From Mobula hypostoma (lineage: Eukaryota), in contig NC_086097.1 in the NCBI RefSeq assembly GCF_963921235.1, positions 6,138,001 through 6,202,000 on the forward strand: a stretch of 64,000 nt of DNA. The letters are read 5' to 3'. Position numbers and translations under genes: made by a program. Below, piece by piece: positions 6,705-7,064 of the stretch (position 1 is its first letter; each line of letters opens with the position of its first letter). The notes under the pieces are model-generated. The model ran no database searches and was not told where the DNA came from. It saw only the letters and a list, made by a program, of their open reading frames with translations.

Positions 6705-7064
6705 CTCGATCGGTAGCTGCTGTTTGATTTTCTCCAAACTGAAGCACTTAGCCTGGGCTGCCTCCGCAGCCTCTTCAGCATCCTGCAGTCGAGACGTCAG
6801 CTTCTTCTCCGACTCCTCCAACTCTCGCCCCAGTCTCAGCAGTTCTGACCCACGCTTCATGTCCATCTCCATCTGGGACGCAATTACACCACCAGCTTTT
6901 TCCAATCTGTTCTGGGTCGATTTCTTGAGTTTCTGCTGATCCTTTTGAAGGTTGGTCATTGTTTCATTTCTCTGGATTAATTAATCAGTAAATGACTGAA
7001 GTTTCGGCTTGGAATTACATTTCTCTGTCTCCACTTTGACGAGCGTGAACTCCAATTCTTCAGT
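6705..7064 (-). pseudogene. Captured sarcomeric myosin heavy-chain rod fragments (MYH16/MYH7B-like), intronless mosaic
   Basis: [14 protein letters not shown]...NLQKD, RLEKAGGVIASQMEMDMKRGSELLRLGRELEE and [31 protein letters not shown] match three separate MYH rod segments recalled from memory. Confidence 0.88.

Follow-up and report, generated by a model that had tools for sequence, protein, structure and literature searches.

The window, a 64,000-nucleotide stretch of the Mobula hypostoma genome, carries on its minus strand (9445..5496) what is very probably a single old copy of a non-autonomous Ty3/Gypsy-type LTR retrotransposon, in which a fragment of a host myosin heavy chain lies between the reverse transcriptase (RT) and the 3' LTR (Table 1). 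Read along the minus strand, the internal order is gag, protease, truncated RT, myosin fragment and tail. A first-pass annotation, made from the sequence alone, had claimed paired LTRs; the pair proved to be real, and global alignment of the 712-bp and 703-bp copies gave 87.4% identity over 697 aligned columns (K2P 0.139). Both copies have TG..CA ends, with the termini TGTAAG...GGCTACA. The element interrupts a LINE-type RT open reading frame (ORF), the two parts of which lie on the minus strand at 9441-10718 and 5025-5645 and join in frame after excision. The 4-bp duplication, TATA, is within the 4-6 bp usual for Ty3/Gypsy-type elements. Removal of the element together with one TATA copy restores the interrupted frame (..RNDKYILKQ..), and these observations concern the window copy only.

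Table 1. Coordinates of the parts of the window element and of the three compared exons of the host myosin gene on contig C68
Feature	Position	Strand	Length	Basis or remark
Target-site duplication (TSD), upstream copy, TATA (element strand)	9446..9449	minus		Identical 4 bases after 3' LTR
5' LTR	8734..9445	minus	712 bp	TG start, CA end; direct repeats, end sequences, global alignment
Putative primer-binding-site region, TTTGGGGGCTTCATC...	8710..8733	minus		Position only (just inside 5' LTR)
gag-like region	8090..8410	minus		Pfam PNMA; within open frame 8752..8027
Protease-like open frame, ILDTGE	7567..8088	minus		Motif; DTG at 7839..7831
Truncated reverse transcriptase	7125..7445	minus		Pfam RVT_1; YVDD at 7142..7131
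Myosin segment 1	6912..7064	minus		~MYH7 955-1004 / Amia myosin-16 949-~997; TAA at 6983..6981
Myosin segment 2	6810..6911	minus		~MYH7 1149-1182; spans junction of parent exons A and B
Myosin segment 3	6705..6809	minus		~MYH7 1390-1425; matches parent exon C68:14707345-14707477
Tail	6199..6704	minus	506 bp	Between myosin part and 3' LTR; present in related copies
3' LTR	5496..6198	minus	703 bp	Direct repeats, end sequences, global alignment
TSD, downstream copy, TATA	5492..5495	minus		
Parent exon A	C68:14663723-14663809		87 nt	AG and GT borders
Parent exon B	C68:14666491-14666736		246 nt	AG and GT borders
Parent segment-3 exon	C68:14707345-14707477		133 nt	AG and GT borders

The Pfam match to PNMA, a family that we take to be of Gypsy origin, covers residues 115-221 of a 241-aa frame (E 4.8e-8, with 33.1 bits where the cut-off is 25). 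RVT_1 was reported on 7445..6981 (E 1.5e-7, with 31.8 bits where the cut-off is 29.6), the match taking in positions 58-157 of the 205-position profile. In the window frames Pfam recognized no protease family; the DTG of the ILDTGE frame is presumably the retropepsin signature. The order of a PNMA-like gag, DTG and an RT with YVDD fits a Gypsy element, and, with integrase missing, BEL/Pao or retrovirus-like elements would also be compatible. Of the RNase H and integrase that follow RT in Gypsy elements, the former was seen only in the related locus L065 and the latter in no copy; both are absent from the window copy, which is therefore unable to move by itself. Pfam reported no family in the tail (6704..6199), and at the protein level the tail matched nothing but ray ORFs belonging to its own element family (7 hits among 45 candidates).

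Several other retroelement remnants surround the insertion. A third copy of the LTR lies in the opposite orientation at 10870-11539 with no internal region alongside; it is 76-81% identical over two long aligned blocks and 85-88% identical over a 65-nt end block, and is probably the solo LTR of a related element. Two similar ORFs containing ..GVIYCVQCSRCGLLYIGETRRRLGDRFAEH.. are found on the minus strand at 112-435 and 4631-5047, and seem to us to resemble the GIY-YIG endonuclease portion of Penelope-like elements. Further LINE-like ORFs occupy 11548-16040 on the minus strand (endonuclease-like, zinc-knuckle gag-like and RT with ..FADDTK..), and the region is therefore a pile of nested retroelements.

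Myosin likeness and the parent gene

On the minus strand, 7064..6705 forms one continuous frame of 120 codons with a single TAA at 6983..6981, and the myosin-like part follows the RT as initially described, with YVDD located 22 codons upstream in the same frame. The earlier translation of this segment was reproduced exactly, and its two dashes correspond to no frameshifts. A phmmer search against PDB returned 15 sequences at E≤10, of which the top 10 were all class-II myosin heavy chains; the best match was a MYH7(1361-1425) construct (E 2.5e-8), and full-length MYH7 gave an E value of 9e-7. Query residues 2-~50 were placed on MYH7 955-~1004, residues 40-86 on 1136-1182 and residues 41-118 on 1348-1422, in agreement with the original reading of three non-adjacent rod segments in native order, with segment 1 weak when taken alone (independent E ~1e2). 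The rod portion amounts to ~120 codons in the window and to at most ~330 in relatives, with no motor domain; the insert is a gene fragment and not a member of the myosin genes.

A match of this type might reflect generic coiled-coil similarity or convergence in place of descent from a host myosin. Weak PDB matches to coiled coils of kinesin and tropomyosin were indeed obtained (E 2.5-4.9), and the first-pass annotation's suggestion that Pfam Myosin_tail_1 would recognize the insert failed, as none of three window pieces was reported at E≤1 and none of seven related ray ORFs at E≤0.01, so that no element-derived peptide matched the family. Coiled-coil bias filtering is the likely cause of this missing report. 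Set against generic similarity are the identity of 87-95% at the nucleotide level to three exons of a single gene, the exact exon-exon joints and the colinearity of long relatives over >280 residues; the exon identity and the joints refute it, and we accord it practically no probability. The decisive support for a myosin origin lies at the nucleotide level, where the window is 88.5% identical over 200 nt to the exons of a single host gene.

The parent gene, which encodes a sarcomeric myosin of the host, lies at 14.66-14.71 Mb on contig C68, and three of its exons were compared (Table 1). Nucleotide identity to these exons was 94.8% over 251 nt for L064, 92.4% over 251 nt for L065 and 80.1% over 196 nt for L066, all three being element copies of other subfamilies, and 87-90% over about 200 nt for 11 loci of the window type. 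The window itself reached 91.7% over 36 nt of exon A, 88.3% over 60 nt of exon B and 87.5% over 104 nt of the segment-3 exon, whereas the other host MYH paralogs were only 69-80% identical to element copies. In the element, exon A is joined exactly to exon B (..CCCAG/AT.GAGATG.., with the slash marking the joint), and the coding sequence also runs on upstream past the acceptors of both exon A and the segment-3 exon. As the 2,681-nt intron that separates exon A from exon B is precisely absent from the element, the template was a spliced mRNA. The evidence supports the view that the insert represents spliced host MYH mRNA sequence, in sense orientation, within an LTR-flanked Gypsy-type element. 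The proposal in the first-pass annotation of a retrovirus-style transduction of a spliced muscle mRNA in sense orientation is thereby borne out by 87-95% parent-exon identity and an exactly absent intron, and mapping onto the parent, which it had also put forward, located all three matching exons on C68. At the ENK/VKNL position, which it had given as an exon junction in MYH7, the MYH genes of the host's C68 cluster likewise have an intron, which is missing from the element.

A search with a host myosin exon as query recovered 13 host paralog exons together with four element copies of other subfamilies (L064-L067), and the paralog at C68 14.66 Mb carries the diagnostic ..ESELLRLRRELEE.. of the element. 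Over 155 residues, the parent scored 72.3% with Scleropages myosin-16(-like), 70.3% with Amia and about 63-65% with fast-skeletal types, and six of the eight best matches to a 198-residue stretch of L065 are named myosin-16(-like). By these comparisons, the parent gene is closest to proteins named myosin-16, with modest margins over other types, and the first impression that the insert is nearer to MYH16/MYH7B than to MYH7 holds in so far as the parent and the long copies match proteins named myosin-16(-like) best. Host myosin genes of non-muscle and smooth-muscle type were rejected as the parent, having no match to the insert, as was the sarcomeric cluster at C68 15.3-15.9 Mb, with identities of 48-68% at the amino acid and 69-75% at the nucleotide level.

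Instead of copying an mRNA, the element might have acquired its insert as DNA, through recombination either with the gene itself or with a processed pseudogene that already existed, and intronless myosin-tail stretches do exist elsewhere in the genome. They include G000 C18:48745523-48746731 (L013), C50:30689110-30689772 (L014) and loci on C184 (L015), C157 (L016), C21 (L017, L028) and C12 (L024, L025), all with long Myosin_tail_1 matches, no introns and internal stops. However, the 10 such loci tested have nothing in common with the element at the DNA level, and four of them (L013-L016) are only 29-31% identical to named sarcomeric myosins; these loci may have arisen as processed pseudogenes from other myosins or from other coiled-coil genes. 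The insert of the element is, moreover, intronless, in sense orientation and a replacement of internal pol between intact LTRs, as in the retrocopies described by Tan et al. (2016, Genome Res 26:1663, PMC5131818). We therefore regard capture at the DNA level as highly improbable.

Copy number and deletion history of the chimera

The 360-nt myosin segment gave 830 candidates in the 3.48-Gb Mobula hypostoma genome, and a 90-nt probe over the window-type RT/myosin junction gave 214; both figures are first-look candidates, of which 40 were scored in each search. All 40 scored candidates for the segment, the window's own included, cover 357-360 of the 360 nt and are distributed over 18 contigs, the other 39 at 92-94% identity, and all 40 scored with the junction probe span the junction at 91-95%. 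The recurrence of the RT/myosin junction in many copies implies that the chimera itself has been copied many times, and the mobilization that the first-pass annotation had envisaged is thus substantiated by the 830 candidates, by the 18 contigs among those scored and by the 214 candidates for the junction itself. In nine of 11 fetched loci the colinearity with the window extends through the RT/myosin junction, while the remaining two (L004 and L012) have ~147 extra bases at this point; the myosin/tail junction is spanned in all 11, and in eight the similarity to the window ends within 7 bp of the 3' LTR end.

These observations bear on whether the arrangement could be a local accident, namely a processed myosin pseudogene beside or nested in an LTR element, a segmental duplication or a misassembly. 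The TSD evidence comes from the window copy alone, and none of the listed short public repeat unitigs bridges the RT/myosin junction, both of which would be compatible with an accident. On the other hand, identical junctions occur on many contigs, similarity stops at the LTR end in the eight loci mentioned above, the TATA duplication restores the LINE frame, the element family is found in assemblies of four named ray species, and a short public contig (X1 record 3, 6642-6747) bridges the myosin/tail junction. An accident of this kind is extremely improbable.

Longer relatives show how the three segments are connected. L065 retains RNase H (Pfam RT_RNaseH_2, E 9.9e-10), followed by a ..YRPG....DVLSR motif, which we take to be the end of RNase H just before integrase in Gypsy pol, and then directly by myosin sequence. 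The latter is colinear with Amia myosin-16 888-1135 (41% over 248 aa, E 3e-47), continues to ~1176 and then jumps to ~1384-1420 in the same numbering. The public ray ORFs P0011, P0134, P0005 and P0012 also keep ~915-1120 (P0011 against MYH7 915-1121, E 4e-13), and in the relatives segment 1 continues unbroken into further myosin sequence. Three separate captures were rejected, since relatives keep ~888-1176 contiguous and the segments are deletion remnants. The original capture comprised ~888-1176 and 1383-1420 (Amia myosin-16 numbering) in place of integrase, and, as L065 still has RNase H, integrase was all that it replaced. The claim that the insert had replaced RNase H and most of integrase consequently stands for integrase and falls for RNase H, which was lost later, together with the RT thumb, in the window's subfamily.

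Common to every variant seen are the 1176/1383 junction (..RELEES/KKKLTS..) and the myosin/tail junction, which are therefore the oldest junctions. The former sits in a ..TGGAGGAG.. stretch, and, to judge from the Amia sequence ..EELEETKRKL.., this stretch was probably present at both ends of the deleted part. In L067, L004 and P0006 the RT thumb (..KCQVW..) is fused to myosin at ~residue 922. Relative to this form, the window type has lost a further ~147 nt, and it has also lost ~residues 998-1142, leaving ..QNRLE/KAGG... In L064, RT ..LDLRSGCYQIP is fused to myosin at ~1015, and the Hypanus and Hemitrygon forms have yet other deletions. On the strength of these alignments, the window copy is a later deletion derivative of one longer captured cDNA.

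Distance from the parent is 5% for L064, 8% for L065, 10-13% for the window type and 20% for L066. Such unequal divergence of subfamilies is not predicted by a single capture with a uniform clock; ascertainment bias is a likely contributor, L064-L067 having been found through their likeness to a myosin query.

We consider it very likely that the whole can be explained by a single mRNA capture by a Gypsy-type element, spread in trans and later deletions, with the insert as a passenger. A spliced mRNA of the myosin-16-like C68 gene would have been captured once, most likely by RT template switching onto a co-packaged mRNA, that is, by LTR-mediated retroposition, and the captured cDNA would have taken the place of integrase while the LTRs and other cis signals were kept. 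Related autonomous elements would then have amplified the chimera in trans into hundreds of copies. Over the course of this spread RNase H, the RT thumb and portions of the myosin insert would have been lost through internal deletions, with the three-segment form of the window as one outcome. No autonomous partner was identified in the 150 highest-scoring of 9,153 RT candidates, whose longest open frame was 583 aa, and no integrase-bearing protein shares the tail among its 7 hits from 45 candidates.

Related systems, coding constraint and distribution in rays

In acutely transforming retroviruses of the v-src type, spliced cellular mRNA replaces replication genes, and the product is defective and helper-dependent. 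The ray element resembles such oncogene transduction in that spliced cellular mRNA was taken up at the expense of replication genes. In contrast to oncogene retroviruses, it lacks env and any sign of an infectious virus, its spread is genomic and in the germline, and what it carries is a fragment of a structural coiled coil that shows no sign of selection. From the C68 myosin-16-like gene, to which it is 87-95% identical at the nucleotide level over three exons, the element differs in being a rod fragment that lacks both the motor domain and introns and that contains internal deletions as well as a stop codon.

LTR-mediated retrocopies are known in animals, and, according to Tan et al. (2016), there are indications that such loci behave as non-autonomous LTR elements, with microsimilarity at both element/mRNA fusion points as a hallmark; maize Bs1, rice and HERV-K/FAM8A1 are cited there as earlier cases. 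In the ray element, as in those retrocopies, a fragment of spliced host mRNA in sense orientation replaces part of the internal ORFs, and both LTRs are present; the likeness rests on intron loss and on the replacement of internal ORFs between LTRs. The cases in that article are young, and two re-mobilized Drosophila retrocopies have 'more than one insertion site', whereas the ray family comprises hundreds of candidates and several deletion subfamilies in at least four ray species. Like the plant elements of maize (Bs1) and rice cited in the same text, the ray element carries host gene fragments and has itself been retrotransposed; unlike them, it resides in a vertebrate, contains a single myosin-rod fragment and has a high copy number.

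Full-text literature searches, which returned mostly listings and abstract starts, found no description of this family. This accords with the statement in the first-pass annotation that no description of such a family was known to it, while the mechanism itself has already been published for animals (Tan et al. 2016). New are the myosin-16-like rod fragment, its occurrence in rays, the hundreds of candidates, the traceable deletion series and the spread across genera. The family offers an unusually clear vertebrate example of host-gene transduction by an LTR retrotransposon, with the parent gene identified and three exon borders crossed, one of them with a 2,681-nt intron shown to be removed exactly, and its deletion derivatives record how a defective chimera evolves while spreading. 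We expect it to be of moderate relevance to specialists in transposons and in ray genomics.

Coding constraint was assessed on the window and the 11 fetched loci, which are the best matches to the window, a choice that favours clean, indel-free copies. Three of the 12 copies have one stop in 360 nt and nine have none, and internal indels are absent from all 12. Pairwise dN/dS was 0.57 in the coding frame, compared with 0.83 and 0.58 for the wrong frames; as the in-frame value is not below that of a wrong frame, there is no frame-specific constraint, and the myosin insert may be read as a neutrally decaying passenger.

It could be argued that the myosin coiled coil is expressed and aids the element, for instance through multimerization, that it has been co-opted by the host, or that small RNAs act on the parent. 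RT and myosin share one frame in the window with a single stop, RNase H of L065 runs into ~240 stop-free myosin codons, most of the 12 copies are stop-free and all lack internal indels, and RefSeq-type ray models include element ORFs, some fused to SDHAF3 or TMEM192 exons. Nevertheless, the in-frame dN/dS of 0.57 is no lower than the 0.58 of a wrong frame, the 12 copies were chosen in a manner favouring the indel-free, and the parts of the insert that are deleted vary from one subfamily to another, as would not be expected of a required domain. No RNA run was found among the 20 listed public runs that contain part of the stretch, none of which has half or more of its words. A function of the insert is thus very unlikely, and we prefer to see it as a passenger. 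The joint reading that this is the first high-copy, long-lived vertebrate LTR family built around a transduced host gene, and that its rod ORF is not inert, we likewise hold to be unlikely. If it were true, hundreds of transcribed copies could give rise to coiled-coil peptides or to antisense small RNAs acting on the myosin-16-like parent or on the helper, and the element fusions with SDHAF3 and TMEM192 would be real exonizations.

Twelve near-length protein matches were obtained among 193 candidates, all from rays (six in Mobula hypostoma, three in Hypanus sabinus, two in M. birostris and one in Hemitrygon akajei); no shark or skate protein was among these 12, which is weak evidence of absence. 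The deletion junction ..LTAAFQV.VEEAGG.. is common to ORFs of Mobula and of Hypanus/Hemitrygon and to L066 and therefore, under vertical descent, the capture predates the split of those lineages. The capture and the subfamily deletions common to manta/devil rays and stingrays would provide a datable marker for myliobatiform rays.

Public annotation names some of the copies 'putative uncharacterized protein MYH16', 'myosin-7B-like' or 'myosin heavy chain, skeletal muscle-like'. With element copies named as genes or fused to them, myosin gene counts and isoform lists of rays are inflated, a practical caution for anyone annotating myosins in these genomes. Two Hypanus sabinus gene models illustrate such fusions, which are either exonizations or annotation artefacts: the SDHAF3 isoform X1 model (P0004) has the myosin part and tail behind SDHAF3 residues, and the TMEM192 isoform X1 model (P0135) reads like gag-PR-RT-myosin-tail.
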